The notes beneath the pieces are model-generated. The model made no database searches. It was not told the origin of the DNA and was given only the letters and a program-made list of their open reading frames with translations. Below are positions 371 through 60,960 of a DNA stretch of 64,000 nt, in pieces. Both the position numbers and the translations under genes were made by a program. Source of the stretch: a virus (taxonomy: Duplodnaviria; Caudoviricetes); IMG/VR virus record IMGVR_UViG_3300032007_000067, positions 1 through 64,000 of that record; one strand, written 5' to 3'. Numbering within the stretch: the first letter of the stretch is position 1; each line of letters begins with the position of its first letter.

Positions 371-386
371 TGTGAACTGTATCACA
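371..386 (-). promoter_or_regulatory. CRP-type box
   Basis: TGTGA-ACTGTA-TCACA, perfect consensus; 40 nt upstream of a GATCAT -10-like box (330-325), with -35 TTGCAA. Confidence 0.75.
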
Positions 387-660
387 AATTTAATCAAAAA
401 GCAGCTCAGGTGATATTAGGTTACTTTTTAAGCGTATCATATCCAGCTTTTATTATATTCTCAAAATATTTTGTATTTGGTCTGATAGTTTTTATGCTGA
501 TTTTTAAAATTATTATTATAATTTTAAAAGTTATTTCAAGCCGCCAAAGTCAGGTTTCCCGTATAATTTTTCGATATACTAGACCCAGCTTTTTTGGTAA
601 CTCGTATAAAAATATTAAAATTCCTGGGTGTTAAAAAATTGTTACTTTTGGCAATTCCTG

Positions 661-694
661 AAAAAACAAAAACCGGAACTTTTTACAGTTCCGG
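661..694 (-). terminator. Intrinsic terminator after the clamp-like gene
   Basis: CCGGAACT/AGTTCCGG stem followed by a T tract on the minus strand. Confidence 0.65.
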
Positions 695-769
695 CATATT
701 TTAAGATTTTAAAATTAGCCTTTAATTATAATCAGACATAAAATGAACAATATAATCATTTATGCCGCC

Positions 770-2077
770 TTATAATACAATTTTACTGATAATTATAATA
801 TCCCTGTTTTCGGTATTTGTAATTTTAACACTATTGCTTTTTGCTATAAATTGGAATTCTAAAGATGTGTATTTGCTGTCGAGGCTTTTACAGATATCCA
901 ACAAATAATCGCAACTTAAAGCAATTTCAAGGTCTATCATGTTAAATTCATTTTCAGCGTTTAATTGTATTGTTTTATTGTATTCCTGAATTGCACCGTT
1001 TTTACATTCATTCTTTTTTGTTCCTTTTAATAAAATGTGATTATTTGCTCCGGTTCCGGTAATAATCACTGCATGATTCAGTTTGTTAGTATATTCTTTT
1101 ATGCTTTCAAGTCCTTTTTTCAGCTCAGATATTCTAATACTAAAAGAATGATCTGTGTGATTATTCGGTATTATCATTTTCATGTTTGGGTAATTTTCAC
1201 TGTCAGGCAAAAAACCTAAATTAAATCCGGAATCATTTTCAAGTGATATATTGCAATGATTGTCAGAAAACTCAATTATATAATTCTTGCTCAGGTTTTC
1301 TTTTTTATTTGCTTTTATATCCTTCTCCAAAAATAACAGTATGTTTTTAGGAATTAAAAGATTATTTTTTGAAACGTTTTTATTTTTCCCGGCATAACTG
1401 ACCCACAATTTACCAACATTCCCCCGATAGCCATCGCAGGAATAAACATCAATATACGTGTTTATGCAGCTTATTTCCGGCAAAATTATATTCAAATTTT
1501 CTAATGATTTTCTGAAATCATTATCAGCCACAAAGCATTTTTTAGTTTTTATCATATCTAATAAATCATCCCCCCGAACCGATATTTCATTTTTAAACAC
1601 AAAATTATCAATTTTCGGAATAATGCCAATCGCTGTTTTTTCTGTATTTAAAACCGGAACGAAAAATTTGTTATATTTTCCCTGTTTGATCTGTATAACA
1701 GTTTGTTCATAATGATCGATCTGTGAAATCGTAAAGGAAAAATCACTTGTATTTATTCCCGAAAAATATTTAATAAAATCATCGGTATTCATTTTTAAAA
1801 GCAGATCGCTGTTATGGGATTTAATTATAATATTATTGTCATATTCAAACCGGGGAAAAATTTTAAATTCCTGCAAAAACATTTTCCCGTTTTCATAAAT
1901 CCGATAAAGATTCATTCCAAGATCGCAAAATTCAAAATAAATCACATCATTTTTAAGATCTTTTTTAGTTTTTGCAATTTTGAAATTTTTAATTCTGCTA
2001 TAAATCCGGTTAAAAACATCGGTTTTAATTTCAGCTTCATTAATAACATTTTCGGCATTAATTCTTACATTTTCCAT
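770..2077 (-). CDS. DNA polymerase III beta-clamp-like protein with divergent N-terminus
   Basis: C-terminal two thirds resemble clamp domains II-III: VYSCDGYR (cf. V.TDG.RL), LLIPKN, NYPNMKMIIP (cf. YP.Y..VIP), ALSCDYLLDICKSL (cf. FN..YL.D.L). Confidence 0.6.
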   Translation of the reverse strand: MENVRINAENVINEAEIKTDVFNRIYSRIKNFKIAKTKKDLKNDVIYFEFCDLGMNLYRIYENGKMFLQEFKIFPRFEYDNNIIIKSHNSDLLLKMNTDDFIKYFSGINTSDFSFTISQIDHYEQTVIQIKQGKYNKFFVPVLNTEKTAIGIIPKIDNFVFKNEISVRGDDLLDMIKTKKCFVADNDFRKSLENLNIILPEISCINTYIDVYSCDGYRGNVGKLWVSYAGKNKNVSKNNLLIPKNILLFLEKDIKANKKENLSKNYIIEFSDNHCNISLENDSGFNLGFLPDSENYPNMKMIIPNNHTDHSFSIRISELKKGLESIKEYTNKLNHAVIITGTGANNHILLKGTKKNECKNGAIQEYNKTIQLNAENEFNMIDLEIALSCDYLLDICKSLDSKYTSLEFQFIAKSNSVKITNTENRDIIIISKIVL

Positions 2078-2177
2078 GATAAATAGTCCTATATTAGTTA
2101 AATTTGATTTTTTAATTTAATCCCGGTTTTAAAAACCGGAAACATTTTATTTTATTTTTCTGTTTTATTCCTCCGGA

Positions 2178-2732
2178 TCATCTGAAAAAATCTATTATAT
2201 ACTCTGCTAACTGTTTATCATTATCAAAATAATAATCTTTTATTAATTTAATAATATCCGATATTTGATAATGATCAAAACAAAAATCGTTTATTCTATC
2301 ATGCAAAGTACCGCCATAAGTGCAGATATAATTAAACGATTTGTAAAACGTATCTTGTAAATATCTCCCGATCTCTTCTTCTGCATCCTCGCTTTTTAAC
2401 AATTTCTGAATATCTTCAATACTCAAAAAATACGCCAAATCTTCATGATCGTTATAATCAAATATCCCGGAACGATTTTTTAATTCATAAAGATCTAAAA
2501 ACTCCCACAATATCCGTTCCCCTGCTTCTGTATATAAAAGATCCGAAACGGTTTTTATTTCGCTGTTGTGGCAGTAGTCTGTAAAATCACATTCTAAAAC
2601 TTCCCAAAAATCGCATAAATTGCGATCTATATATTGTAAAATATCATTATATATGTGATTTTTGATGCTGTTTACATGGTGCAAAATGTCGTATAAATTA
2701 GTATCTTGAATATCTTTTTTAAGTAAAATCAT
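2178..2732 (-). CDS. Hypothetical acidic early protein
   Basis: 184-aa ORF, CATGGAG RBS, rich in D/E and aromatic residues. Confidence 0.75.
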   Translation of the reverse strand: MILLKKDIQDTNLYDILHHVNSIKNHIYNDILQYIDRNLCDFWEVLECDFTDYCHNSEIKTVSDLLYTEAGERILWEFLDLYELKNRSGIFDYNDHEDLAYFLSIEDIQKLLKSEDAEEEIGRYLQDTFYKSFNYICTYGGTLHDRINDFCFDHYQISDIIKLIKDYYFDNDKQLAEYIIDFFR

Positions 2733-2787
2733 TTTTTAATTTCTCCATGTCTGTAAAATCCGGGAAAAAATCCCGGATGTTAAAATT

Positions 2788-3201
2788 TTACGCTTTTATT
2801 TTTATTCCTTTTTCCCTGCATATTACCTTTATTTTTTCATAACCTTTTTTAGCGTATTTCGCTTGCATTTTTAAAAAGTCTATATATTTATCTTCATTTT
2901 CCCACTGTGTAAACTTCTCCGGAGTTAATAAGGTTTTAGCAAGATCATAATTAGAAATTAATCCGCATCCGCCGTTACTCCACTGTTCAAAATCTTTAGC
3001 ACCGTTCAAAATCGTTTTGATCAAAGATCCGTTGCTCCATTCAATTTTAGAAATGTTTTCAATTTCAGGATCTAATTTTTCATAATCCAAACAATTTGAA
3101 ACATCTTCTAAATGACTAATAGCATAATAATTAATGTTTTTATCTTCCTGAGTATTACAGATCTCATTTTCAATTAAAGCAATAATATCATTGATTTTCA
3201 T
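2788..3201 (-). CDS. Conserved hypothetical phage protein
   Basis: CATGGAG RBS before MKIND; motif LNGA.DF.QWS.GGC.LI.N.D.A..L.TP recalled from gut phage proteins. Confidence 0.75.
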   Translation of the reverse strand: MKINDIIALIENEICNTQEDKNINYYAISHLEDVSNCLDYEKLDPEIENISKIEWSNGSLIKTILNGAKDFEQWSNGGCGLISNYDLAKTLLTPEKFTQWENEDKYIDFLKMQAKYAKKGYEKIKVICREKGIKIKA

Positions 3202-3368
3202 TTTTATTTTTCTCCATGTTTGTAGCAATGCGGGATCTGAAATAATCCCGCAAAAAATTATAAATTTATTATGCCTGTAATGCTGTAAAGTTTGTGAAAG
3301 CTGTTTCGCTGTTCACGATTCTATGATCTCACGATTTGCAGAAAACTCAAAAACTCTTTTATCGTTTT

Positions 3369-3384
3369 TGTGATGCACTTCACA
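3369..3384 (-). promoter_or_regulatory. CRP-type box
   Basis: TGTGA-TGCACT-TCACA, perfect; 40 nt upstream of GATCAT (3328-3323). Confidence 0.75.
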
Positions 3385-3653
3385 AATTTAACGCAAAAAG
3401 TCTTGAAGTCTTTGTATTACAAGCCCTAGCAGGGATCGATCCTTTTAAACCCTTACATTATAAGCTCTGATCTGTTTTTTAATCCCGCCGATCCTTACGT
3501 TACAAGGCTTCGCAGGTTGTCCAGGGGTTTAAATAAAAATTAATCCCGTTCTGAAATAAAATAAAAAATCGGAACTCTTTTTAAGTCCCGATTAGTCTAG
3601 TTTTTTGCAGCTGCCGGATGCCCCGAAGGGATTAAATTTTATCCGTTATATGT

Positions 3654-4556
3654 CTAGTTTTTAAACCTCGTCTGGCTGTTCAGCACTTGCGATCCGACTA
3701 CTTTTATTGACCTTGGTAGCACCTGGCGTTCCCGCCCCCAGTCTGCCATTGACCGGTAAACCTTGACCCAGCTTTTGCCCTCAGATCGCCATCTAAAGCC
3801 TGCCTCTTTAACCTTTTCTTTATCGTCAAAACTGCACTTGACCTCGATCTCAATACTCACCTGCGCCGCCGCCTCGCACAATTCTCGCAAGGTTTGTGTA
3901 GCCCGTAACACCTGTAACAGCATCAAAACATCGTTTATTGCTCTATGTGCTTGATACCAGTACCCGCATAAATACGCCAGCATCTCCAAGTTTTTAGCTT
4001 TATAGCCTTTTTCAGCCCACCTAATTTCGGTCAAACTGTCTGCCCAGTGAAGATCCCAGCTTTCAGGCCGGTTAAAGGTTTTCTCAAAGATTCTTCTGTC
4101 AAAACTCGCATTATGCGCCACCACCAAACACCGCTCCGGAAGGTATTCCGCAAAATCTTCCCACATCAGCCTTTTTTTCAGCATGTCCGGGCGGATGCCG
4201 GTTAATTGTTGGATCTCCTCGCTCGGTTCCCGTTCCGGCTTTGAAAACGCATCAAACAAACAGTCAATGCTCAATACTTCCTTTGTTCTCACGTCATAAC
4301 TGCATACACAAAAAGCCAATTCTATGAGTTCTGCATCAGCCGTGATTCCCGTTGTCTCAGTATCAAGTATCACCAGCTTTCTCACCCGCTTTTCCGGAAC
4401 CTGTGTATCTGAAAGTATGATTTTCTCAAAACTTTTTCCCGCTCCGGAGACAAACCTCAGATCATCAGTCTCCAGCGGATTGCGTTCAATCGCTTTCCAT
4501 CGCTCCGGCTCCGCAATAATTTTCTGTAATTCTTCCTGCGTTACCATATCTCCCAC
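3654..4556 (-). CDS. DEDDh 3'-5' exonuclease (DnaQ/epsilon-like)
   Basis: ExoI ILDTETTG, ExoII VAHNASFD, ExoIII HRAINDV. Confidence 0.9.
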   Translation of the reverse strand: MGDMVTQEELQKIIAEPERWKAIERNPLETDDLRFVSGAGKSFEKIILSDTQVPEKRVRKLVILDTETTGITADAELIELAFCVCSYDVRTKEVLSIDCLFDAFSKPEREPSEEIQQLTGIRPDMLKKRLMWEDFAEYLPERCLVVAHNASFDRRIFEKTFNRPESWDLHWADSLTEIRWAEKGYKAKNLEMLAYLCGYWYQAHRAINDVLMLLQVLRATQTLRELCEAAAQVSIEIEVKCSFDDKEKVKEAGFRWRSEGKSWVKVYRSMADWGRERQVLPRSIKVVGSQVLNSQTRFKN

Positions 4557-5134
4557 ACTCCCATATCATTTTTATGATAAATCCGCTGATTATCTGATCC
4601 ACGATACGGCAAAAAATGAGTTGCGTTTTTATCATATTTTCCATCTACAAGATAATCAAAATATTCTGTAAAATAATAAAAAAATCCGTTTTGAGAATCC
4701 GTTTCCGGTTCCTGAGCGTTCCCGCCCCCTTCGTCCAAAAATCCGTTTACAAGTTCCCGATCTTCTGTTCCCCAGCTCCCGCCGCCTATTTTGTCGTATT
4801 GCAGAACATGTTTCTCATAGCCTGTATAGCACCAAATCTGAATCTTATCGTCAAAATTCCGTTTTACCTGTTGTGCAATCCACAGAACTTTATTCCGGTT
4901 AAAAAGAGCCAGCGGATCACCGCCTGAAAAAGTAATTCGTTTTATTTGCGGCCTTTCTAATATTTCAAATAATTTCTGCAACGTTTCTTCTGTAAATATT
5001 TTTCCCTTTTTCCGGTTCCATGATGCCCGATTAAAGCACCCCTCGCACTGATGATAACAGCCTGACACAAATAATGTCATGCCGTAACCTAATCCGTTAT
5101 TATTTTCACATTCTTCAATTTTTAAATATTTCAT
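4541..5134 (-). CDS. nrdG: Anaerobic ribonucleotide reductase activating protein
   Basis: Radical SAM motif LFVSGCYHQCEGCFN, ITFSGGDPL, WCYTGY, DYLVDG, RGSDNQRI. Confidence 0.93.
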   Translation of the reverse strand: MKYLKIEECENNNGLGYGMTLFVSGCYHQCEGCFNRASWNRKKGKIFTEETLQKLFEILERPQIKRITFSGGDPLALFNRNKVLWIAQQVKRNFDDKIQIWCYTGYEKHVLQYDKIGGGSWGTEDRELVNGFLDEGGGNAQEPETDSQNGFFYYFTEYFDYLVDGKYDKNATHFLPYRGSDNQRIYHKNDMGVWEIW

Positions 5135-5282
5135 TCCGTAAAAATCCGTTTTTATTTTTATTTCCGTTTTTGTTATGTAAAATCCGTTTCTCTATTCTAC
5201 CACCATTCCCCTAACCATGCCGCCCCCTTGCTCACGAATCTGCTAAACATTCTAGTTCCGTTAAATATTCTTTCCCGCAAAC

Positions 5283-5308
5283 AAAAAAAAGCCCTCATTT
5301 CTGAGGGC
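5283..5308 (-). terminator. Intrinsic terminator
   Basis: GCCCTCA/TGAGGGC stem followed by 8 T on the minus strand. Confidence 0.7.
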
Positions 5309-5369
5309 AAAAAGGACTAAAATCATAATCGTATTGTAAAACAAATCTGTTAAAACTTCAATATTTATT

Positions 5370-5714
5370 TTAAATAATTTTCACCTGAGACAAAAATCCG
5401 TTTAAAAGACTGTCGAGTCTCTGCGCAACCTGATTCACTTCTGCCCAAAAAATTTTACTATCAATTTTTTCTAAACTGTTTTTCCGATACTCCAACAAAG
5501 CAACCGAAAAATCCATAATCACAAGTATTCTGTCATACTGGCATTGAGCCTGAAGGAAACTCATGTAATCCATTGTTAAATCTCTTTTCCCGATCCTGAA
5601 TGTGATTTTTATTCCCGGTTCAGATCTTTCAGAACAAAGATCCGTTTCAAAATTCGTCATTTCCTGATTTGCGATCTCGCATATACCCAGTGTGATTGTT
5701 ATTTTTTCCCGCAT
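5370..5714 (-). CDS. Hypothetical protein
   Basis: 114-aa ORF in a co-oriented early gene run. Confidence 0.65.
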   Translation of the reverse strand: MREKITITLGICEIANQEMTNFETDLCSERSEPGIKITFRIGKRDLTMDYMSFLQAQCQYDRILVIMDFSVALLEYRKNSLEKIDSKIFWAEVNQVAQRLDSLLNGFLSQVKII

Positions 5715-5776
5715 ACAATCCGTTTTCCTGCTGTCTGACCGGGAGCAGAACGGCCCTGCCCCCTTTTTGCGTCAGA

Positions 5777-6013
5777 TTATAGCATACCACAATCACCCGA
5801 AACCCGTGACCATTTCTGGCCGTTGTGCATGACCTCGGCCCCAGTCATAAATCCGATTCTATCCACGGTAGTTCCAATATATAACACTGTTCCCTGAAAA
5901 AACTGCTTTTTCAAAGCCTCTTTCCTTGCATCTTTCAGGCTCTCTGCATTGAGTTTAACAGCTTGTCTGCATCTGTATCCGCAATTCTGCAATGTTTCTA
6001 CCATGTAATACAT
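5777..6013 (-). CDS. Small conserved phage protein
   Basis: 78 aa; motif A.SL.DA.K.A...QFFQGTVL.I recalled from other phages; AAGGA RBS. Confidence 0.7.
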   Translation of the reverse strand: MYYMVETLQNCGYRCRQAVKLNAESLKDARKEALKKQFFQGTVLYIGTTVDRIGFMTGAEVMHNGQKWSRVSGDCGML

Positions 6014-6034
6014 AATCTGTCCCCTTATTCCTTT

Positions 6035-6349
6035 TTAAGCCCACTTGTAAAAAGCACCATGCAGAATACATTCAAAAAGTTCTTTTACATTCTTTTTTGA
6101 TCTCGGACGGTTATTTAATGTTAATACCCGATAAAAGTAAGTGACACCCGCCATAATAGCATTTTCATCGCCGTTTCTCAGACAAAGCCCTACAACCTTT
6201 CTCCCGGCCTTATCAGATTTTACAAGATCTAATTCCAAGTGATCAGATACAATGTATTTCATTCTCAGTTCAGGGCATTTTCTAAATAATTCCTGATTTA
6301 TTTCGTCGGTTGCTTTATCAAGTTCATTCAATCTGCTGAATACAAACAT
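6035..6349 (-). CDS. Hypothetical protein
   Basis: 104-aa ORF, GAGGA RBS. Confidence 0.7.
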   Translation of the reverse strand: MFVFSRLNELDKATDEINQELFRKCPELRMKYIVSDHLELDLVKSDKAGRKVVGLCLRNGDENAIMAGVTYFYRVLTLNNRPRSKKNVKELFECILHGAFYKWA

Positions 6350-6403
6350 TTTATTTTCCTCTATGCTTTTTCAAAGCGGGGTCCAAGCCCCGCCGATCCG
6401 TTT

Positions 6404-6838
6404 TTAATCCACTACCTTTGCTTTAAATTCCAAAGTAGGTGCTGCCTCTTTAGTAATCAAAGTCTGGTCCACAATGCCTTTCTGTTCTTCTGTTAGCATC
6501 TTGTATTTTTTGTTATCCAGCGAATGCTTAACTTTGAACAAACTGCCTACGTCAACCCCGCAAATCTCAGCTTCAGCGGCCACAATGCTGAACTTTTCCT
6601 CGTCAACGGTAGTATTGAACTTTTTTGTAAAGATAAGTTCACCGCCCTTCACATCAGCCTTATTCTTGCCCGTAACGGATTCCTTAAAAGTCTCCTGAAC
6701 CAACTTTTTTCTTAAATCCATTTCGTATGCCTTGATAGTTTCAAGTACCTCGCCCGCCTGTCTCCAAGCTGTAAGGATATCCCCGCTGTTTACAAGTGAT
6801 ACGATCTGTTCCTTGACAATTTCATTTAAAGTACACAT
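6404..6838 (-). CDS. Conserved phage protein of unknown function
   Basis: 144 aa; EM.LRK...F...G.N...GG.L...K.N..VD and EAAPTLEF pattern recalled from siphoviruses; GAGGA RBS. Confidence 0.75.
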   Translation of the reverse strand: MCTLNEIVKEQIVSLVNSGDILTAWRQAGEVLETIKAYEMDLRKKLVQETFKESVTGKNKADVKGGELIFTKKFNTTVDEEKFSIVAAEAEICGVDVGSLFKVKHSLDNKKYKMLTEEQKGIVDQTLITKEAAPTLEFKAKVVD

Positions 6839-6862
6839 TTTTTGTTTCCTCTTTAGTTAAGT

Positions 6863-7162
6863 TTACTGCAAATTATTATTTTTCAACCACTGATCAAATT
6901 CTGTTTTCCACGCCGGGTAAAGTTCCTCGGCTAGTTTTTCAATGTCTGACCAATCTTCATAACGGGATTTACACAGCTCATTTAAATCTGCATCTTTCGC
7001 AAATTTCTTTAACTGCCGATCTACTTTATCGGTAATAAACATGATAAAATCTTTATCTGCTTTACCGTTTTGTATGTCGGTCGCAATCCGATATCCGGTA
7101 AACAATGCAAGATCAGTCAAATTGAATTCTTGCGGAATTCCTTTTTCAAACAGCCTTTTCAT
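6863..7162 (-). CDS. Hypothetical protein
   Basis: 99-aa ORF, first gene after the 7266 CRP-type promoter. Confidence 0.7.
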   Translation of the reverse strand: MKRLFEKGIPQEFNLTDLALFTGYRIATDIQNGKADKDFIMFITDKVDRQLKKFAKDADLNELCKSRYEDWSDIEKLAEELYPAWKTEFDQWLKNNNLQ

Positions 7163-7265
7163 AACCTTTTTCCTTATGTTTGAACTTTCCTTTGTTAAGC
7201 CCCTTGCTTAACTGTTATAAGTATATCAAAGGGCAATTCCTTTTTAAATATTCTTTTATCTGTTT

Positions 7266-7281
7266 TGTGAAGTCTATCACA
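7266..7281 (-). promoter_or_regulatory. CRP-type box
   Basis: TGTGA-AGTCTA-TCACA, perfect; 40 nt upstream of extended -10 TGa-TATACT; overlaps the TGA stop of ORF 7277-7711. Confidence 0.75.
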
Positions 7282-7711
7282 TTTCAGTGAACATCTCCGG
7301 TAAAGCCCCAAGCTCTTCACCTTTGCGGTGAAAAAATTCCATCTCCGGATCTTCTTCACCGCCATTCCCGTTAATGCGGTTAAAATGTTCCCTCAAATCA
7401 GCATCCCGCTCCGCAAACTCGGTCAATATCATTCTGATCGCTTCTTTTACGGTTTTATTCTGCCCTTCGGCTTTCTCCTTAACCGTGAGATACACGCATA
7501 AACTAAAAATGTTTTCTTTATCATCATTCTCTACAAGATAATGAAAAGTCTCTCGCAAAATATCATAAACTGTTACTACATCACGAGACCTCATTTTATG
7601 GCCGAACCGGTAAATCTCAAAGCAGATATACAACCGGTTCATAATTTGTAATTTTTTAATATCTGACACCAGTTTATGATCGTTAATAGTTCCGTTGCAC
7701 ATGGTATTCAC
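7277..7711 (-). CDS. Hypothetical protein
   Basis: 144-aa ORF, AGGAG RBS. Confidence 0.7.
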   Translation of the reverse strand: MNTMCNGTINDHKLVSDIKKLQIMNRLYICFEIYRFGHKMRSRDVVTVYDILRETFHYLVENDDKENIFSLCVYLTVKEKAEGQNKTVKEAIRMILTEFAERDADLREHFNRINGNGGEEDPEMEFFHRKGEELGALPEMFTEM

Positions 7712-7716
7712 TCCTT

Positions 7717-7968
7717 TTAAAAAATCTGCTCTGCCAAAAATTCCAAGTCATTTTCATACCGTGCTAAAATCTCGCTTGCTGGCATATCTTTCGCTAAAAA
7801 CCTCTTTTTGTCTGTCATCCTTACTGTGTATCCGAAACCGCTGTTATTATCGGTTTCGTTCTGAAGTTCATGCAAAAATTTGAACAAATCTTCGTAACCT
7901 TCTCCCGTGTAAAGTCTAGCCGCATTTTCACTGTCAATGATATGAAATCTAAAATCGTTAATATTCAT
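7717..7968 (-). CDS. Hypothetical protein
   Basis: 83-aa ORF, CAGGAG RBS. Confidence 0.7.
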   Translation of the reverse strand: MNINDFRFHIIDSENAARLYTGEGYEDLFKFLHELQNETDNNSGFGYTVRMTDKKRFLAKDMPASEILARYENDLEFLAEQIF

Positions 7969-8013
7969 TTTTCGCTCCTGGAGGGCAGATAACCTGCCCT
8001 GTGAAATTGTTTG

Positions 8014-8358
8014 TTATTCAGCTACAACCGCTAATCCGTGAATGTAATCTGCAATTTCTGACAAGCCTTCTAAAGCCTTTTCCAGTTCGGGCTTTTTGCT
8101 CCTGATTTTCTTCAAATTTGCTTTCACGTTATCGATCATGTTTTCAATAGTCCCGACTGTATCTGAACTATCATAGTTTTCTGCAAGGTGCTGAATGTAT
8201 TCAGCGTTCCATGATTTAGGATCCCGTTCCTGATCCTCAACCTGATTACAGCATTCTATAATATGCTCTGCCGTATCCCGGTTAAAGACATTTTCCAAAA
8301 AGTCTTTAAGTTCATACGGGCTGATAAGTTCTTCATCTTTAGTCCTGAAATAACACAT
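8014..8358 (-). CDS. Hypothetical protein
   Basis: 114-aa ORF, TTGGAG RBS. Confidence 0.7.
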   Translation of the reverse strand: MCYFRTKDEELISPYELKDFLENVFNRDTAEHIIECCNQVEDQERDPKSWNAEYIQHLAENYDSSDTVGTIENMIDNVKANLKKIRSKKPELEKALEGLSEIADYIHGLAVVAE

Positions 8359-8464
8359 TTTATTTATTCTCCAAGTTAGTGTTTTTGCTCCGCAACCTTT
8401 CGTTGCTTTCTGATTGTAAGTTTACAGCTATTCCTTCTCACGGTAAACTTTCTTTTATTGTTTT

Positions 8465-8480
8465 TGTGAGTTATTTCACG
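8465..8480 (-). promoter_or_regulatory. CRP-type box
   Basis: TGTGA-GTTATT-TCACG (9/10); 40 nt upstream of -10 TAAACT, with -35 TTTACC and a 17-nt spacer. Confidence 0.7.
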
Positions 8481-8989
8481 TTTCTCAATTCTTCTGCTTT
8501 TGCAAGGATCTGATCCCAGTCCTCAAACCGGGTCATGAGAGAAAACCGGACATCATCTTCCCAGCGTGTCAGCCGTTCCCTGTCATGCCATTTCTGAATG
8601 ATCCTTTCCGCATAATCCATTAACGCTCTTATTTCCGGAGCAAAAAACTCCCACAGATATTCGATCCCGGTTTCCCGGCCTGATACACACCTCCAACCCT
8701 CGTTTTCACGATATACTGCCCACTTGTAATTTACAAGAGTATCAAGATTTCCAGCGTTAATCAGACAGGCTTTCATAATTTCCCAATCTTGCTCCCCGTT
8801 AAACTCACGGTTGAAAGTATGGAACCTTCCGCCCTGTCCAATAATACTTGCATATCGGCACATATCCCCGAAAAATCCGTCCATGTCTTTTTCTTGCAGT
8901 TTTATGAAAATACACGCCTTCACCTGATTCTTTAAGGTTTCAAGATCTTTCGTTTCTGCAATGTTAATGCTGTCGTGAATGAGTTTCAT
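8471..8989 (-). CDS. Hypothetical protein
   Basis: ORF 8471-9052; TTGGAG RBS supports the MKLIH start at 8989. Confidence 0.7.
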   Translation of the reverse strand: MKLIHDSINIAETKDLETLKNQVKACIFIKLQEKDMDGFFGDMCRYASIIGQGGRFHTFNREFNGEQDWEIMKACLINAGNLDTLVNYKWAVYRENEGWRCVSGRETGIEYLWEFFAPEIRALMDYAERIIQKWHDRERLTRWEDDVRFSLMTRFEDWDQILAKAEELRNVK

Positions 8990-9048
8990 AATATTCTCCA
9001 AGTTGTTAATGTTTGTCGTTTCTGAGTAATAGTTTACTACCGTCTGTA

Positions 9049-9282
9049 TCACAAAGAGTTCCGAATGTTTTCCAAAAAATCATACGCCTCGCCAACTTCA
9101 TCTTCTGTCCATTCCTGACGGGAAAGAAAACTTCCGTCACATAAAGCATCCATAATCATTTTGACGTTGCTTTCAAACGTTTCGTTATCATCCCAATAAT
9201 TCTCAAATTCTGAGATAACATCAAAACAACCATTTTCTCTTGCAGTATTTTCAAGATCTTTGTAAGTAGTGAGTTCTTTCAT
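9049..9282 (-). CDS. Small, strongly acidic hypothetical protein
   Basis: 77 aa; about 20 D/E versus 6 K/R by hand count. Confidence 0.7.
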   Translation of the reverse strand: MKELTTYKDLENTARENGCFDVISEFENYWDDNETFESNVKMIMDALCDGSFLSRQEWTEDEVGEAYDFLENIRNSL

Positions 9283-9387
9283 TTGTTTTAGTCCTTTAAA
9301 GTTAAAAAATCACCGGTTGTTGTTCCTCAACCGATGATTCCATTTTACTAAAAGCCTTTTTGACTTGCAGAAGTCTTTTTACAGTTT

Positions 9388-9403
9388 TGTGATATAGTTC
9401 ACA
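9388..9403 (-). promoter_or_regulatory. CRP-type box
   Basis: TGTGA-TATAGT-TCACA, perfect; 40 nt upstream of -10 TAAAAT. Confidence 0.75.
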
Positions 9404-9406
9404 AAT

Positions 9407-9856
9407 TTAGCTATTTCCTGTCCCGGTACTGCCGAATCCACCCGACCCCCGTTCGGTCTCGGAGAGTTCTGTCACAAGGCTTAACTCAGTCTGTAACACC
9501 GGAACAAAAACAGCTTGCAGAATCCGATCTCCCCGTTTATACGCAATTTCCCGATAAACCGTTCCGCTGGTCTCTACATCTAAATGAGCAATCCATTCGC
9601 CACGGTAATCACTATCAATAACTCCTACAGTATTCAGCAATCTGATCCCGTTTAGCCCCGCACTGGATCTCATCATCAGCAAGCCACAATATCCTTCAGG
9701 AATTTCAGTTGCGAACCCTAGCCGAATTACGTTATCCGCTTTTGAATTTAAAATCACATCTTCTTGCAGTTTTAAATCATAACCAGCCGAGTTCCTTTTC
9801 CGCTCCGGCATCAGAAAATTATCACATAACGCTTTTATTTTAATCATCAGGTTCAT
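9407..9856 (-). CDS. dut: dUTPase (trimeric type)
   Basis: SAGYDL, MRSSAG, GVIDSDYRGE, GDRILQAV, ERGSGGFGSTG. Confidence 0.96.
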   Translation of the reverse strand: MNLMIKIKALCDNFLMPERKRNSAGYDLKLQEDVILNSKADNVIRLGFATEIPEGYCGLLMMRSSAGLNGIRLLNTVGVIDSDYRGEWIAHLDVETSGTVYREIAYKRGDRILQAVFVPVLQTELSLVTELSETERGSGGFGSTGTGNS

Positions 9857-10346
9857 ACTCCTTTATAACTATCTTGTCCTGAAAATTGTTAAACAACTCC
9901 GGCTCAATCACTGTATCGCCGACACAAATACATCTGATAACTGATTTTTCTATCCGTTCCACCATTTCCGCATAATCCCGCAGAATTGCCCGAATAATTT
10001 CAGCTCCGCCTATTGCGTATATCTTGCACTTTTCACAGTCATAACTGCTCGCCAGTAGTTCCGCAGTCCGAATCGCATTGCCCAACCCGCATACAAACAA
10101 GAGATGGCTTGTATCCACAAACTTCCGGTTCATCTCGCTGACCCATTTTTCATCACGACTCACCACCACATTGATCCGTTTCAGCAACGGTTTTTCGCCT
10201 ATACTTTCCCATGTTTTACGCCCCATGAGCACCACATTGCCCTCGGTTGCCCGCTTAAAGTCCCGCATATCCTCCCGGCATTTCCACGGAATCCCGCCTT
10301 CGTATCCGATTGTTCCGGTAATATCACAGGCAAATTTAATAATCAT
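9840..10346 (-). CDS. folA: Dihydrofolate reductase
   Basis: IGYEGGIPW..REDM..FK, VLMGRKTWESIG, RINVVVSR, IGGAEI, GDT. Confidence 0.93.
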   Translation of the reverse strand: MIIKFACDITGTIGYEGGIPWKCREDMRDFKRATEGNVVLMGRKTWESIGEKPLLKRINVVVSRDEKWVSEMNRKFVDTSHLLFVCGLGNAIRTAELLASSYDCEKCKIYAIGGAEIIRAILRDYAEMVERIEKSVIRCICVGDTVIEPELFNNFQDKIVIKEYEPDD

Positions 10347-10355
10347 TGCAACACC

Positions 10356-10760
10356 TCACAGCACCTTTATGTAAATCAAAACTCTTGCGTTGTTCTTGTC
10401 AAACCCGCCGTCATTCCATTCTTCATGAATAACAATTCTTTTGTTATCGTCCGGTATTTTTCCGTATGCCACAAGTGCGTCAAGGAAAAACTTGCTCACC
10501 ACGGCCACAATATTCATACCGTCATGAACCCGATTATCCCCGAAAATTATTTCATAGTCTATGCTGACCTTTTTCATATTGTGCGGGAGATCAATAATCT
10601 CATTGTGCATAATCCGTTTATATTCGTCCTTTGCCCGATTAAGCACCTGAAAATGAGCGTTCCGGTACGGGTTCAGGTTCAGCATGAACTTCTTTTTGCC
10701 TACCAAAACACTTATCGGACTCTCTACCACAAAACATTGTGTTTCTTCATCAAAATGCAT
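10356..10760 (-). CDS. RusA-like Holliday junction resolvase/endonuclease
   Basis: D.MN....KFFLDALV..G.IPDDN pattern of the RusA family. Confidence 0.7.
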   Translation of the reverse strand: MHFDEETQCFVVESPISVLVGKKKFMLNLNPYRNAHFQVLNRAKDEYKRIMHNEIIDLPHNMKKVSIDYEIIFGDNRVHDGMNIVAVVSKFFLDALVAYGKIPDDNKRIVIHEEWNDGGFDKNNARVLIYIKVL

Positions 10761-11115
10761 AAAAATCCGTTTTCCTTTGTTTCGTTTTGTTTACAATCCG
10801 TTATTTCAAAAAACCCGTTTTTCCTGAAACAATCACAGAAAAAATCCGTTTTTATTTCAAAAAATCCGTTTCTGAAAAATCCGTTTTTGGCTAAAACTGG
10901 AAAATCCGTTTTTAACCCCCGAAAAAATCCGTTTTGGTTCAAATCTCCTATGCTAACTCAGAAAAATCCGTTTTTAACCCGTATCAGTCACTTCAAATCA
11001 ACTTCAAACTGACTTCAAACCGACTTCAAACAAAATCCGTTTTTCTTCTAAAAATCCGTTTTTCTTCTAAAATCTCCTGAAATTAGAAGAATCCGTTTTT
11101 TAAAAAATCCGTTTT
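10761..11115 (+). repeat. Array of AAAATCCGTTTT motifs plus four ACTTCAAA repeats at 11-bp period; candidate replication origin or protein-binding array
   Basis: 12 exact ATCCGTT cores flanked by A and T tracts, all in one orientation; ACTTCAAA at 10990, 11001, 11012, 11023. Confidence 0.85.
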
Positions 11116-12063
11116 TCAAACCGCCATTTCAAACTTGATCGCCGGACAATGCTCATAACCCGTCAGAACAAAATCGCTTGTCTTAACTGATTTCAAAAAT
11201 CCGTTTATGTCCGAATAATCCGCTTTTTCCGGCAGTATCAGTTCTGGTAGTTTTTTCGGTTCTCTCTGCAACTGTTCAATAACCCCGTCAAGATGATTCA
11301 GGTAAATATGACAATCCCCTAAACTCCCGATAAGGTGCAACGGCTTCTTTCCGGTTATTCTTGCAATAATACAAAGCAATAATCCGTAACTTGCAATATT
11401 GAATGGAATTCCGATTGTGCAATCTGCTGACCTTTGATTCCACATCAGACTCAAATATTCCGCATTTTCGCCGCTCACGTAAAACTGAAATGAGTAATGG
11501 CAAGGTGGGAGGGTCATATAGGGCAGTTCCGCCGGATTCCACGCAGAGACAAGCAACCGCCTTGACCACGGATCATTTTTAATTCCGTTTATGACCTCAG
11601 CTATCTGGTCAATTTCTATTGTCTTATGTTTGCCCCACGGGATGCGTTTGCAGGCATATAATCCGTTTTCTTCACCGGTGTAAACAATTCCGTTAAAATC
11701 ACGCCATTGTTTACCGTAAATTCTCCCAAGTTCTCCGTTTTCGTATCCTAAATTCCGTCCCTGACACTCGTAATTTGCCGTCCAGATCGTCCGTCTTTCC
11801 TTTTCCGTCAGCTCCGTATAAGGCTTGCTATCGTTCTTAATCTCGGCTAAACGGTGTTCATTTGCAGAACCCTCTAAAAACCATAGCAGTTCCGACACAA
11901 CCGAACGCCATGCCAGCGATTTTGTGGTAATTGCCGGAAATCCGTTTCTCATATCAAACCGGATCTGCCGCCCGAATACTGAAATTGTTCCGACTCCAGT
12001 TCTGTCCTTTCGTTCCGTTCCATGAGCCATAATGTCTCGGATTAAATCTAAATACTGCTTCAT
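11116..12063 (-). CDS. thyA: Thymidylate synthase
   Basis: DRTGVGT, ELLWFLEG, GRIYGKQWR, SRRLLVSAWNP, LPPCH, NQRSAD, GIPFNIASY. Confidence 0.97.
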   Translation of the reverse strand: MKQYLDLIRDIMAHGTERKDRTGVGTISVFGRQIRFDMRNGFPAITTKSLAWRSVVSELLWFLEGSANEHRLAEIKNDSKPYTELTEKERRTIWTANYECQGRNLGYENGELGRIYGKQWRDFNGIVYTGEENGLYACKRIPWGKHKTIEIDQIAEVINGIKNDPWSRRLLVSAWNPAELPYMTLPPCHYSFQFYVSGENAEYLSLMWNQRSADCTIGIPFNIASYGLLLCIIARITGKKPLHLIGSLGDCHIYLNHLDGVIEQLQREPKKLPELILPEKADYSDINGFLKSVKTSDFVLTGYEHCPAIKFEMAV

Positions 12064-23093: not shown

Positions 23094-24233
23094 GTGAATA
23101 AAATGAAAGTAATAAAAAGGGACGGTTCCTCCGAAAACTGGAACCCTGATAAGATCAGACAGGCGGTGTCAAAAGCCGTTGTCAATCACGAGAACACGGA
23201 AAAAGCAGTTGCCATCGCTATCGACCGTATTCAATCCTCTTTTTGCACTATTGATGTAGAGACAATTCAGGATATTGTCGAGCAGGAATTAGGGTATAAC
23301 GGCAATGTAAACACGCTCCGTAATTACGCTCATTATCGGGCTGAACGGGCGAACGTCAGAAGTGTAAATGCAATTCTGAATGATATTTACAAAAAGCAGG
23401 ATTCCACTATTCTGAATGAGAACGCAAATATTGACGGCGAGACAAACTGTGCAAAGCGTGATTTTATCGCCAGCGAGATCTGTAAACAGTGGGCTTTAAC
23501 ACACTTTCTTCCGAAGGACATTGCCAACGCTCATATCCGGGGTGATATTTACATTCACGATCTCGGCTTTTCTCCCGCCGGTGGCTATATCAACTGCTGT
23601 CTTGTTAATATTAAAGATATGCTCGAAAATGGCTTTACAATGGGAACTGCACATATCACAGAACCTAAATCCATTCGGGTTGCCACCAACGTTGTCGCTC
23701 AGATTATTACCGCTGTTTCTTCTCAGAATTATGGCGGTACGAGCGTTGATCGTATTGATGAAGTTCTTGCTCCTTACGTTGAAAAAAGCTATGAAAAGTA
23801 TTGCAATGAAGTTCAGGAAGAATACGGGGATATTTGCGATGCTGATGTTAAGAAAATTGCCATGAAACGCACTGAAAAAGAATGTGAGGATGCGTTTCAG
23901 CAATTAGAATATTCCATCAACTGCTCCCACAACTCTCACGCCCAAGTCCCGTTTGTAACATTAGGATTCGGACTGGGCGAAAGCAAGTGGGCGAAAATGA
24001 TTCAGAAATGGATTCTGAACACCCGTATCAAAGGTTTGGGAAAAGAACGGAAAACCGCAATATTCCCGAAACTTGTATTTGCTCTGAAACGGGGATTAAA
24101 CCTGACGCCGACAGATCCGAACTATGACATCAAACAGCTTGCATTAAAATGTTCAGCACGGAGAATGTATCCGGACATTGTAAGTTATGATAAGGTAACG
24201 GAGGTGACCGGCGGTTTTAAATTTCCGATGGGT
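23094..24233 (+). CDS. nrdD: Anaerobic (class III) ribonucleotide reductase, exon 1
   Basis: ATP cone VIKRDG, ENAN.D, GDIYIHDL, NCCLVN, QNYGG.S.D, IFPKL.F, RMYPD; ends ..FPMG. Confidence 0.93.
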
Positions 24234-24496
24234 GAACTTTAAAGACTGCCCATGTAAAACCTGTCTAAACAGGGGATCTCTTTTGAAATAAAGACAATCC
24301 TGTGCTAAATGACGAAAGTCTAAAAGCTAAACGACTAACCCTGATGAATGTAAGGGTGTAAGGTACAAGCAAATGGTATCTGAAATGATAGGCACTTATC
24401 ATAAGATAAGCGAAGATATAGTCTGATCTGTATGGTGACATACAGCAGTTCATAAGAGAACGGGCGTGAACTTGCGATCCATGCCGAACACAAATG
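24234..24496 (+). mobile_element. Group I self-splicing intron (263 nt, no ORF) in nrdD
   Basis: Exon ends in U, intron ends in G; removal gives ATG GGT TGC AGA AGT TTC (MGCRSF). P1 AUGGGU/GCCCAU has the U-G splice pair; core elements AATCCTGTGCTAAA, ACGACTAA and GAAGATATAGTCTGA are present. Confidence 0.92.
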
Positions 24497-33222: not shown

Positions 33223-33238
33223 TGTGATACACTTCACA
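33223..33238. promoter_or_regulatory. CRP-type box
   Basis: TGTGA-TACACT-TCACA, perfect; 69 nt upstream of a plus-strand TTGCAT-16-TATTAT promoter; target promoter uncertain. Confidence 0.65.
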
Positions 33239-37028: not shown

Positions 37029-40000
37029 CTACACCTCGTATGTTCTTATAAGATAACCCGTATCTTCTCCGGTTCCGGCAGAATAAACCGTGTGATAATC
37101 GGACGGGGTTGTTACTTCAAGTTCGCCGTTTACAATGGCAAAGGTTGTCGGATTTCTTGTGTTCATTGTCACAGTAAGCTGTCCGGTTGTCAGGTTCATT
37201 CCAAACTCCATCACAAGATCCGGCAATTCACCCTCAAACACCACTTTTTGTATGCTGGCCACACTGTCTCTTTCAGACCACACTTCAATTTTAGCATAAT
37301 CCTCAATATCGCACGGTACAATGATATCGTAACTGCTTGTATTCGGAGACACGTCAGACACGGAATAAATACTGCCGGAACGGTTGCTGATGCCGACTTT
37401 GTAAACCGTACCCGTTTCAACTGCAACCCCGTCAGTGTCAATCCACAGCATGTAATCATCAGCGATCTGAGTGAGACGGTTCCGGTTTTTCCACGTCATA
37501 TTGCCCCGATGATACCAGTCAACTGCTCCCATTTGCGGGAAAAATACTCCGCCGATCTTCACACATGCCGGAGGATAAGGACGATAACAACGTGCGTCAA
37601 ACACCACATTCTGAGTATTGGTAGCCGTCAGATCGGCAAGTGTGTTTCCTGACATGACAGCAACTTTGATCATGTAGTTTTCACCGCCGGTAAACTCATC
37701 ATCATTGCAGATTGAACTGTTATTCAGATTTGCAATAAACAATACCGCACCGGGCTTATGTATTGCGGGAACGGTATCAAACAAACCACGGCTTATCTGA
37801 ACGGTTTTGTAATACGGATCAATCTCTCCGATTCCGACAATTTCATCATCAATAAATCCGACACACCCGTCTGCCACCGAAACAGAACTCAAATTACTGC
37901 CGTTTTCATATCTCATGGACGTTGCAAGCTGGGAGATCTCGTTTACAAGCACACATGACGGAACAAAATCTTCTTTGTTTACTGAGCCGATATAATTAAA
38001 AGACGTGCCGTTTGAGGTAAGATATTCCTCGGCAGAATCAACCTTGACGGTATTGTATGCAGACACAAACACCCCCAGTTTTCCGGCGGTTTTATCATCA
38101 TTCAGCATACCGTCCGGATCCTGTTCAAGTTTGTAAAGAACGTAATAAGGAAGCTCTGTTGCTTTTACATAATCAAAGTTTGTAGTGATTGCGGGAGCGG
38201 TAATCACCGGAGTTCCGCCCGCAGTATAACCGGCAGAATCCGGCATAAAGAATTTGTCCTGAACAAGTTCCATTTGCACATTATTGCTTGAAGAACCGCC
38301 GTAATTGATTTTCAGGATTCTGAATACGGAGTTTTCAATTCCGAGATGCGGGAAATCAAGTATAATACAATCGCCGAGATTAAGCGTTCTGCCCTGTAAA
38401 CCCACGGTAAGCGAACATGTTAAAAACTGACTGGCGTTTTCATAAAGATCCCTCTGAGCAAGTTTTACGGCGGTATCCTTCCAGTACACATACGGATAGT
38501 CAAAATCTGCATTTATCGGTTCACCTTGCTGTTGAAGAAGGGCGAGATCCTGATAAACAAGGCTTGCATCCTCACCCGTTTCCCAGTTTTTGTATTTGAT
38601 TGTTACCTGATTTACACATTCACTTAATGCGGTTCTTTTCACGTCTTTGATTTCAAGAACGTTGTCTGAATTAAACGTCAGAAGATCATCAGTGTCGTAA
38701 TCGTCTCTGAAAAGTTTTAATTGCACAAGACCGGTGGATCTGTCAACTCTTAACACCCCGCCGATAATCCTCAGCACATCGGAAATAAAATCGGAGACTT
38801 TATCATCGGATTCAAACACAAAACTGATACCTAACTGTTCGGCATAAAGGGTATCAGCCGCCGCCCGGAAATTTGCATCGTCAATTACACTTGCGTCCTT
38901 GCCGAGTCCCCATACCTTGCTGGTGATGGCTTCTCTTATGGCATGAGCGGGGTTGTAATCAAGCTGTGAACCGTCATAATCGGCAAGTTCAAAACTTCTG
39001 ACAAAGCGGATCACATAAGTTCCGCAGAACCCGATCATGTAGGATCTTGTCATGACAAAGCAACATTCCGTATCTTCTGCATACGGTAACAGACTTTCAT
39101 ACGTTCCGATCACAACATTTTCAAGGTTTTTCTGAGAGGTGATATTGTTGATTCTGACAATGACATCATCGCCGTTATGAACCATAAGATAGGCAATACC
39201 CTTGTCGGTATCAACACCGAACGCCAGAACCGTATCGCCTGAATCAAACGTTCCCTGACTTGCGTAAAACGTCATGCCGTATCCGGTATTTGCGGTATTG
39301 TTTACCGGTTTTACACCTTGAACCGTATAATTACTGCCTGATTTGTTTCCGCAATAACAGGCACGACCGTCCGTAAATACAATGTAAGAGGATGCAGAGG
39401 TGGTGTTTCCGAAATTACCGCTCACCACATTGTAAACAGTTTCCCGTCCGAAATGTCCGGTTTCTCTTGCTTCTTCAACACCCAATACCCAGTTTAACTG
39501 TGTTCCGGTGCTGTTGTTTGTCGGTCTTTTGAATATCCAGTAGCCGTTGTTGTAGCTTATATCCGATCTTGCATTTATTGTTCTCGGAAAATCTGTGAGA
39601 TCGCCTTTGATCGGTTCGTTGGTGTAAGGGGAGTTGGTGAAGTAGGTATCCTTGTCATAATAAGTCTGTCCGTAAACCGGAAGCAGAATTTTAACCGGAG
39701 TCAAAACTTCTGTATAGATCACCCCTCCCCAGCCTTCCTGAGTGAGTGAATACCGGTTGTGTGTATAAGTCTGCCCCTTTCCGGAAACAACCGAAAGATC
39801 CTTTGCGCTGAACGTATCCACAGTAGCGGATTGCCCTTTTTCAAGGGTAGTGTAGGTATCGTGAGTACCCACGGCATACCCGTAAAGCTCATCGGTTCCG
39901 AGATTACTGGATACACGCCAGTATTGCCCCGTGTTTTTCTTTGCCTGTAAACGGGAGCCGTCAGAACTGCTATCATGAGCAATGGTGGCTTTTTCCCGAT

Positions 40001-40874: not shown

Positions 40875-40878
40875 TTTA

Positions 40879-58394: not shown

Positions 58395-58412
58395 TGATTT
58401 CATTACGGCAAT

Positions 58413-58485: not shown

Positions 58486-58520
58486 TAAACAATACTAGCA
58501 GATATTTATCACCATGTCAA

Positions 58521-58736: not shown

Positions 58737-58737
58737 A

Positions 58738-59635: not shown

Positions 59636-59656
59636 ACCCTCATTCTATCCAGTTAC

Positions 59657-59680
59657 TAAAAAAGGGGATTACTCCCCTTT
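59657..59680 (-). terminator. Intrinsic terminator after the Gly-rich gene
   Basis: AAAGGGGA/TCCCCTTT stem plus T tract. Confidence 0.7.
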
Positions 59681-59697
59681 CTCTATCTTCGTTCCAA

Positions 59698-60435
59698 TTA
59701 CGCCCCTGCGGTAGTAGTGGCAGGTTTCAGTGCATTGATAATGGTAGTTACCGCATTACCAAGTGCCTGAGTAGTGAAGATCTGATTAGCAAGAACCGCC
59801 TCACGGGCACGAGACTGATTCAGTTCATCAACCTTGTTCTGATACTGGATCTCTCTCTGAAGTTCACGATTTGCACAACCCTCACGCTCAATAGCAGTCT
59901 TTACCTCACAACAACAAGCCTGTTGCTGAGAAGCCAACTGCTGTGCCTGTAAGCGAGACTGATACCCCTGTTCGGTAATGTTGTTATTCAGAACGCCAAC
60001 ACCCTGATTGATAGTAGTATTTACACCACCAAAACCCTGACACATAGCAAGGTTAGTAGCACCCTGAGTCTGAGTCTGAGTAAGAGTATTCTGAAAAATT
60101 CCGGCCTGAGTATCACGAGCATTTGCATTGATAGCACCAACGATAGCGTCACCAGTGTTATTTACAAGATTGCCTACAAACTGATTACTGTTAGCAGTCT
60201 GCATCAGAAGGTCACGATCAGCGTTAGCGATCTGAGTCTGAACATTGCCAAGCTGATTAGCGATACCGTTGATTGCTCCGGTATCATAGCCGACACCAGC
60301 ACGATTACCACCCCAGCCACCAAAACCATTACCAAACAAAGCACCGCCGATAATACCGCCGATGAATCCTGAGCCAAGACCGCCGAATCCCATTCCGGAC
60401 GGCTGATCAAGGATAGTATGAGTTACTTCGTCCAT
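59698..60435 (-). CDS. Gly-rich N-terminus, Q/N coiled-coil, CCC-motif protein
   Basis: GFGGLGSGFIGGIIGGALFGNGFGGWGG; AMCQGF; QQQACCCEVK; family recalled from gut phages, function unknown. Confidence 0.85.
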   Translation of the reverse strand: MDEVTHTILDQPSGMGFGGLGSGFIGGIIGGALFGNGFGGWGGNRAGVGYDTGAINGIANQLGNVQTQIANADRDLLMQTANSNQFVGNLVNNTGDAIVGAINANARDTQAGIFQNTLTQTQTQGATNLAMCQGFGGVNTTINQGVGVLNNNITEQGYQSRLQAQQLASQQQACCCEVKTAIEREGCANRELQREIQYQNKVDELNQSRAREAVLANQIFTTQALGNAVTTIINALKPATTTAGA

Positions 60436-60486
60436 TTTGCAATCCTTAATAAAAATTAAAAAACCGTATCTTTTGGATACGGCTAT

Positions 60487-60515
60487 ATTTTATACTGATA
60501 CTGAGATCAATGCAA
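60487..60515 (-). promoter_or_regulatory. Sigma70 promoter of the Gly-rich gene
   Basis: TTGCAT-17 nt-TAAAAT; +1 overlaps the upstream terminator hairpin (60464-60482). Confidence 0.7.
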
Positions 60516-60529
60516 AATGGGTATAAAAA

Positions 60530-60805
60530 CTATGCTAATATGACAACAAGCAAAAAAGAATTATCATCAATGCAAAAAGTCATACCTTCGTCATTGGTGG
60601 CGTCTCTGTCAAGAAAACATTCAACATGAAAGGAATCACAGACATCTTCAATCATTCTCACAACATCATCGGCAGATTCATATTCATTGCTGTCAACGGT
60701 AAGTTCAACGTTATCTTCATCATCGGTTCTCACGTAACCCTTGCGACATAAGGCTGAAACAAACCTGTCATACAGCATAAAACACCTCGCAATAAAATAT
60801 TTCAA
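60530..60805 (-). CDS. Small acidic protein
   Basis: 91-aa ORF; GAGG RBS supports MLYDR near 60778. Confidence 0.55.
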   Translation of the reverse strand: MKYFIARCFMLYDRFVSALCRKGYVRTDDEDNVELTVDSNEYESADDVVRMIEDVCDSFHVECFLDRDATNDEGMTFCIDDNSFLLVVILA

Positions 60806-60944
60806 ACATTAAAAATGCAGACAGGCGATAATGAATTTATGCAACGGGATCTGTTGCACACTACCTGTCTGCTCCTTTCACCAATAGAGAATGTAAAGCA
60901 ATTATAACACATTCTCATAAAACACAACACCAAGCTTCTGTAAT

Positions 60945-60960
60945 CGTGATTAATCTCACG
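60945..60960 (-). promoter_or_regulatory. CRP-like palindrome
   Basis: CGTGA-TTAATC-TCACG; 38 nt upstream of extended -10 TGt-TATAAT. Confidence 0.55.

Follow-up and report, generated by a model that had tools for sequence, protein, structure and literature searches.

Virus record IMGVR_UViG_3300032007_000067 is a sequence of 77,217 bp from an uncultured virus, estimated to be about 88% complete, and its bases 1-64000 (hereafter the window) carry a series of TGTGA-N6-TCACA boxes, which are the subject of this analysis. The virus has been detected in bovine gut metagenomes and metatranscriptomes, two of the runs containing 59% and 39% of the sequence words of window positions 1-10000. Nearly all of the open reading frames (ORFs) of the window lie on the minus strand. 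The genome encodes a siphovirus gene set (tape measure, tail tip, tail terminator, head-tail adaptor, portal, major head and terminase proteins), a replication module of primase, helicase and polymerase, and several enzymes of nucleotide metabolism (dUTPase, DHFR, ThyA, NrdG, a split NrdD and Tmk), together with a cluster of three tRNA genes. No integrase domain was found in the phage genome, in agreement with an earlier reading made from the letters of the window (the sequence-only reading), in which no integrase had been visible. Identity to named phages, all of which have hosts among the Proteobacteria, is only about 30% for primase and tail proteins, and a megablast comparison of window positions 1-12000 with named phages gave no match.

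The sequence-only reading had listed ten CRP-type boxes, six of them perfect and four nearly so, and had described them as a regulon wired to host cyclic AMP (cAMP) and carbon status. All six perfect sites (371, 3369, 7266, 9388, 33223 and 58379) are present where they had been placed. Dinucleotide shuffles give an expectation of 0.07 such sites, a value that bears out the earlier rough estimate of fewer than 0.1, and none of 100 shuffles reached six. Three of the four near-perfect sites (8465, 27323 and 31518) have a single mismatch, whereas the fourth, at 60945, has two. When up to one mismatch is allowed there are 13 sites, compared with 2.6 expected; the additional sites at 13948, 24665, 29847 and 37158 are intragenic and without promoter features, and their number is at the chance level. 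The final 13 kb of the 77-kb genome contain no box. A position weight matrix built solely from the sites of related phages, the type of scan that had been put forward as a check, recovered seven window sites against 0.33 in simulated genomes and gave no new sites.

Eight of the sites belong to a single class of promoters, read on the minus (coding) strand, five with a perfect box and three with one mismatch (Table 1). Their shared block consists, in order, of aWTT, TGTGAW-N4-WTCACA, AAAAC.ATAAAAGA, a -35-like hexamer, 16-18 nt and a -10 element. Between the end of the box and the -35 there is an A-rich tract of 17 nt, and a conserved TAAAAG at +9 to +14 has its centre 19 bp from that of the box. 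The -35-like hexamers, at +18 to +23, are weak (TTGCAA, TTTACC/TTTACY, TTGAGT and TTGACA); the -10 elements take the forms TGaGATCAT, TGaTATACT, TAAACT, TAAAAT and (TG)GATAAT, and an upstream TG is frequent. In all members the sigma70 -35 and -10 elements are separate from the box and downstream of it. The distances from box to -10 given in the sequence-only reading were reproduced on the minus strand. For 14 of 21 non-redundant sites the best promoter by an unbiased -35/-10 score, calculated for offsets of 25-70, had a gap of 39-40; for the orthologous pair W31518/C48_16312 it had a gap of 50, one helical turn more. Relative to the predicted -10 the centre of the box falls between -59.5 and -62.5, most often at -60.5, and at about -70.5 in one orthologous pair, these positions being counted from predicted starts. 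The geometry is not that of class II, in which a site centred at -41.5 overlaps or replaces the -35, since here the box ends 17 nt before a distinct -35. The remark that several boxes overlap the stop codon of the gene upstream holds for 7266, 8465 and 31518, where the stop lies inside the box; at 9388 it is 3 nt away.

Three relatives were informative with respect to conservation. One is the metagenome contig L021, the exonuclease of which has 58% amino-acid identity; the others are C48 (49.4 kb) and C31 (6.4 kb), contigs of G005, a metagenome-assembled genome (MAG) labelled Eubacteriales, which were found via ThyA at 83-84% identity. C48 is collinear with window 47705-304; its tail genes are 96% identical and its early region only 68-78%. 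There are four perfect boxes and one near-perfect box in the 14 kb of L021, seven perfect and one near-perfect in C48 and two in C31, all at syntenic gene boundaries and all with the same downstream block, so that box and spacing, the conservation of which the sequence-only reading had named as a check, are both kept at syntenic positions in the three contigs. The G005 MAG as a whole (2.8 Mb) has 12 perfect boxes, nine of which are on C48 and C31; the other three equal the control count.

Between positional orthologues, compared without gaps, 1 of 70 positions differs in each half-site (1.4%). Divergence elsewhere reaches 55% in the N6 spacer, 55% in the 30-nt upstream flank, 54% in the promoter spacer, about 40% in the -35 and -10 elements and 21% in TAAAAG. 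The half-sites are fixed while the spacer and flank vary, and this is therefore the pattern of a dimeric protein that reads two half-sites. The relatives found among viral contigs via primase either did not cover the boxed region or were too distant. In a 95-kb relative, G001 (primase 58% identical, GC content 34.6%), there is no box and no alternative class of palindrome, and when viral contigs were screened for the promoter block there were four single hits, near the chance level.

Table 1. Boxed promoters and related sites in the window. Gaps (nt) run from the box to the -10; orthologues are sites in the contigs C48, C31 and L021.
Feature	Coordinates	Strand	Box	Downstream elements	Gap	Setting	Orthologues
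P371	325..390	-	386-371, perfect	A tract, TTTGCA/TTGCAA -35, TGaGATCAT -10	40		C48_47013
P3369	3323..3388	-	3384-3369, perfect	AAAACGATAAAAGA, TTGAGT -35, TGaGATCAT -10	40	after exonuclease gene	C48_43803, L021_11041
P7266	7220..7285	-	7281-7266, perfect	TTTAAA -35, TGaTATACT -10	40	box includes TGA stop of ORF 7711-7277	
P8465	8419..8484	-	8480-8465, CGTGA, one mismatch	TTTACC-17-TAAACT	40	box includes TAA stop of ORF 9052-8471	L021_5863, C31_6197
P9388	9300..9407	-	9403-9388, perfect	CTGCAA-17-TAAAAT	40	directly past dUTPase stop	
P27323	27275..27342	-	27338-27323, TGAGA, one mismatch	TTGACA-17-TAAAGT with TG	42	heads tRNA cluster	
P31518	31462..31537	-	31533-31518, TCATA, one mismatch	TTGAAA-17-GATAAT	50	box includes TGA stop of SDR gene	C48_16312 (gap 50 kept)
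P58379	58334..58398	-	58394-58379, perfect	TTGCGA-17-TAAACT	39	within structural region	
Box 33223	33223..33238		perfect	no A tract or fixed-distance promoter		end of plus-strand ORF, DNA polymerase block	C48_14510
Site 60945	60945..60960		CGTGA-N6-TCACG, two mismatches	adjoins box-less extended -10 promoter TGTGTTATAAT	38		

The regulon of ten sites is thus reduced to a class of eight. Site 60945 was rejected as a member on account of its two mismatches and of the promoter next to it, which belongs to the structural-gene class, as at 53.5 kb. The box at 33223 has no promoter block, and its counterpart in C48, also a perfect box, likewise has none. Beyond this box a further element, GTTGCAACGnGTTGTAAT, is kept both in the window (33180-33140, minus strand) and in C48 (about 14590). 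It is an imperfect palindrome (TTGCAAC / GTTGTAA) and may represent a second operator.

All of the boxed promoters found precede non-structural genes. Those in the region 1-10 kb serve small unknown genes, along with what lies downstream of the dUTPase and exonuclease genes. Elsewhere they precede the tRNA cluster, the unit after the SDR gene and, at P58379 within the structural region, a unit that comprises an ORF of 89 amino acids, the thymidylate kinase gene (57981-57325) and an ORF of 152 amino acids; the sequence-only reading had correctly placed the tRNA cluster and the thymidylate kinase unit downstream of boxes. The head, tail and lysis genes have box-less promoters with a strong extended -10 (TGTGTTATAAT, TGGTATAAT, TGTGTAAAAT and TGTGTGATATAAT), and TTGCAA-17-TATAAT is a further box-less promoter before structural or lysis genes. 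Members of the box-less class, all on the minus strand, are found at about 45.9, 53.5, 55.2, 56.8 and 60.9 kb of the window and at 67.2, 68.2, 73.4 and 75.2 kb of G000, often directly after a terminator, and they may make up a late class able to do without a -35. Boxes stand only before non-structural genes and the structural genes are box-less; the phage therefore has two promoter grammars. The boxed genes would be the early genes.

The class I promoters of CRP are textbook knowledge. The E. coli promoters of the lac P1 type share with the phage class the 16-bp core TGTGA-N6-TCACA upstream of a recognizable, intrinsically weak -35, a centre near -61.5 (in the phage a predicted position), a variant displaced by a helical turn and a 6-bp AT-rich tract for the C-terminal domain of the RNA polymerase alpha subunit (alpha-CTD) 18-19 bp away. 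The phage class differs from them in being a phage regulon of at least eight promoters per genome, in place of host catabolic genes. In class I activation the CRP sites are at -61.5, and alpha-CTD touches some 6 AT-rich bp with their midpoint 18-19 bp away from that of the CRP site (PMC2859248). Box, predicted promoter distance and alpha-CTD tract all match, and the phage promoters therefore reproduce the CRP class I layout. The class I activating distance claimed in the sequence-only reading is accordingly upheld for the predicted -10 elements, with the box centre at about -60.5 and an alpha-CTD-type tract 19 bp from it.

In our model the boxes serve as upstream sites for an activator, in a dedicated sigma70-type class of phage promoters. 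A dimeric protein would bind the TGTGA and TCACA half-sites, centred at about -60.5 (-70.5 at one promoter), and would recruit RNA polymerase through alpha-CTD docked on TAAAAG, which lies between the box and a -35 that is weak by design. Activation would turn on the non-structural genes, that is the small unknown genes, nucleotide metabolism, the tRNAs and tmk. The binder would be a CRP-family global regulator of a diderm host. We regard it as very probable that the boxes are genuine sites of protein binding within a class of promoters, whereas the identification of the binder as a host CRP-family regulator is evenly poised; the model as a whole, this binder included, is one towards which we lean slightly.

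A host regulator of the CRP family is favoured because the phage appears to have no gene of the Crp/Fnr or Ogr type. Six-frame searches of the phage genome gave no match to HTH_Crp_2, cNMP_binding or Ogr_Delta (for PF04606 none at E <= 1), and a Pfam scan of 40 phage proteins found no DNA-binding domain. With no Crp/Fnr-type, Ogr-type or other DNA-binding domain seen in these searches, a host factor is the more economical choice. As to the host itself, the phage has a complete lysis cassette of the Gram-negative type (G000 73377-72005, minus strand, corresponding to L023 13377-12005), which encodes a lysozyme/transglycosylase-like protein, a holin-like protein with membrane segments and an Rz-like i-spanin. 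An Rz1-type lipoprotein with the lipobox LAGC (MNTRLLLLTFVTVSISLAGC...) is embedded in the Rz-like gene in another frame. An Rz/Rz1 spanin cassette indicates a host with an outer membrane, and from the sequence the host is therefore predicted to be a diderm of the cattle gut with sigma70-type promoters. It most likely belongs to the Proteobacteria, given the named relatives of the phage; a member of the Negativicutes is possible.

Searches of named genomes did not narrow this further. A scan with the portal protein gave no host link, and one with ThyA returned only C48 and C31 in the MAG, plus bacterial hits of at most 46% identity. In the G005 MAG neither LpxC nor a Crp-family protein scored above the cut-off. 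It was rejected as the host because it is without LpxC while the phage has an Rz/Rz1 spanin; the presence in it of C48 and C31, which represent two strains of this lineage, is likely to be an artefact of compositional mis-binning in a public MAG.

Several points weigh against our model. The only bin that contains related contigs is this monoderm-like MAG, without LpxC or a Crp-family protein, and a CRP-type protein and cAMP signalling are presumed for a host that is known only as a cattle-gut diderm. The extended core of the phage sites, TTGTGAW-N4-WTCACAA, is flanked by T/A at the positions that are A/T in the E. coli CRP consensus AAATGTGATCTAGATCACATTT, and the predicted box centre is 1 bp nearer to the -10 than in lac. 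TGTGA-N6-TCACA is read by several families of regulators with different effectors. The box design seems to be lineage-specific, being absent from the 95-kb relative, and the many small phage proteins without a recognizable fold could include the binder. Finally, the start sites, the binding, an activating as opposed to a repressing effect, the protein involved with its effector, and the stage of expression are all predictions.

The narrowest form of our model takes the regulator to be the cAMP-CRP of a gammaproteobacterium and the programme to be gated on sugar starvation of the host, as the sequence-only reading had proposed. The evidence for a host CRP-family regulator applies here in full, and the named relatives of the phage genes have hosts among the Proteobacteria. 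Those of the rumen are mostly Succinivibrionaceae, a gammaproteobacterial family. However, two scans of named genomes gave no link to a host family, and the flanks depart from the E. coli consensus. The siphovirus T1, long held to be lytic, is at once a precedent and a further caution: in it host cAMP-CRP directly represses the promoters pir, dam and recE, and glucose promotes lysis (PMC6737242). T1 and the present phage would have in common that promoters are under direct control by host CRP. In T1, however, the effect is repression, so that the sign of a carbon response cannot be assumed, and neither a fixed class I layout nor a genome-wide class has been described (PMC6737242), whereas here an activation geometry is seen at all of the non-structural promoters found. 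We therefore consider gating by cAMP-CRP possible but doubtful. What stands of the original proposal is the class I geometry, the non-structural regulon and the lack of an integrase; gating by cAMP or sugar starvation is not established.

In the main alternative to a host regulator, the phage would encode a dimeric activator of its own with an unrecognized fold, the boxed promoters being a middle class that follows an immediate-early product, on the model of P2 Ogr, Mu Mor/C or phi29 p4. The use of a dyad upstream of the -35, with contact to alpha, is familiar from phage activators. The lineage-specific nature of the box class would suit such a protein, as would the dozens of small ORFs without a family match and the presence in the genome of box-less promoters that host polymerase could use unaided. 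These box-less promoters, however, are mostly situated before structural genes, as opposed to small genes that resemble regulators; six-frame searches gave no domain of the Crp/Fnr, cNMP or Ogr/Delta type; and convergence would be needed for a phage protein to read the exact CRP-family consensus with an alpha-CTD tract placed as in CRP complexes. The late promoters of P2 and P4 are served by the Ogr/Delta zinc-finger activators, which act via alpha from a TGT-N12-ACA dyad near -55. A TGT...ACA dyad upstream of the -35 is common to both systems, but in the phage it is TGT-N10-ACA at -60.5, before non-structural genes and in a genome without an Ogr_Delta domain, whereas the P2 system serves late genes. 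We judge a phage-encoded activator to be unlikely. The stricter version, in which an unrecognized phage protein mimics both the specificity of CRP and its recruitment of alpha, so that the boxed promoters would be a phage-autonomous middle class with no readout of host physiology, is a little less likely again.

The boxes might instead be operators of a repressor, for example a redox repressor of the Rex type or a phage shut-off protein. The Rex operator consensus is TTGTGAA-N4-TTCACAA, and Rex is a repressor with sites that overlap core promoters. Most of the phage sites, with their 18-bp extended core, overlap this consensus, and the box at 33223 and its orthologue suggest that a promoter at a fixed distance is not needed by every box. 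Each site, however, shows a single Rex-like 7-mer half. With its end at -53 it is clear of both the -35 and the -10, and the constant register of 40 nt, the variant shifted by one turn, the weak -35 and the alpha-CTD tract point to activation, which makes repression improbable. Lastly, that the palindromes work as RNA hairpins, either terminators or sites where the 3' ends of upstream transcripts are processed, can be dismissed as very improbable: they are indeed situated at or on stop codons and have a weak fold (-4.9 to -6.7 kcal/mol), but they are followed on the coding strand by an A run and not a T run, their stems are invariant and lack compensatory changes while the loop is free to vary, and the real terminators of this phage have T runs and GC-rich stems with energies of -15 to -20 kcal/mol.

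Hairpins of other kinds are found close to the boxed promoters. Directly 3' of P9388 there is a hairpin followed by T6 (9341-9306, minus strand; -15 to -20 kcal/mol, U6-7), with orthologues in L021 (about 5560-5600), C48 (about 39520-39560) and C31 (about 5625-5660), and its stem covaries among the four phages. The predicted start of P9388 falls within the 5' arm. The hairpin may terminate upstream transcripts yet let those from its own promoter pass, or it may be an attenuator or give rise to a very short RNA. A small GC-rich stem-loop is also predicted within the first 10-35 nt of most of the boxed transcripts (P371, P3369, P7266, P8465 and orthologues), examples being GCGGGA-aaaag-TCCCGC and GCGGC-aata-GCCGC; such stem-loops may be 5' stabilizers. 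In five promoters a short conserved ATGAACAGC follows the -10. A reading of this element as the start of a leaderless mRNA was ruled out, as it lies within the 5' hairpin and an ATG with a GGAG site is present downstream.

Two promoter-terminator pairs without an intervening ORF were noted on the minus strand of the window. At 5361-5291, TTGAAG-17-TACAAT is followed by GCCCTCAGAAATGAGGGC-T8, and at 58520-58413, TTGACA-17-TAGTAT is followed by a GC hairpin and a T run. Both are candidate small RNAs.

The split in nrdD is a group I intron at 24214-24445 (plus strand), between the ORFs 23094-24242 and 24494-25480. It matches Rfam RF00028 with 69.6 bits (E 1e-16), and the two halves of the gene align to positions 1-250 and 264-562 of Pfam NRDD. 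The nrdD gene is also interrupted in T4. The ORF at 770-2077 has no relatives among viral contigs. The idea of a crAss-like phage of Bacteroidota with -33/-7 promoters was ruled out, because the promoters are of the sigma70 type with Shine-Dalgarno sites and the large ORFs encode the tape measure and tail proteins. A similar box design with another spacing occurs in L018 (IMGVR_UViG_3300010885_022071), an unrelated viral contig of 41.5 kb and 45% GC that has no named relative and that was one of the four hits of the promoter-block scan. It has perfect boxes at 486, 1714 and 3593, within 7.6 kb, two of which are followed by an A-rich tract and then GGGTGTAGGATT at a gap of 34.

A search of the literature found no description of a phage-wide family of class I promoters. 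In the published case of T1, CRP acts only as a repressor of a few genes, so that a conserved class I family with an alpha-CTD tract would be a new example. If our model of activation by a CRP-family regulator of the host is true, a virulent gut phage ties its non-structural programme to a single global sensor of host physiology, and the success of infection would depend on the metabolic state of the host. This would bear on phage-host dynamics in the rumen, on the prediction of hosts from promoter grammar and on the use of phages under changing nutrients.

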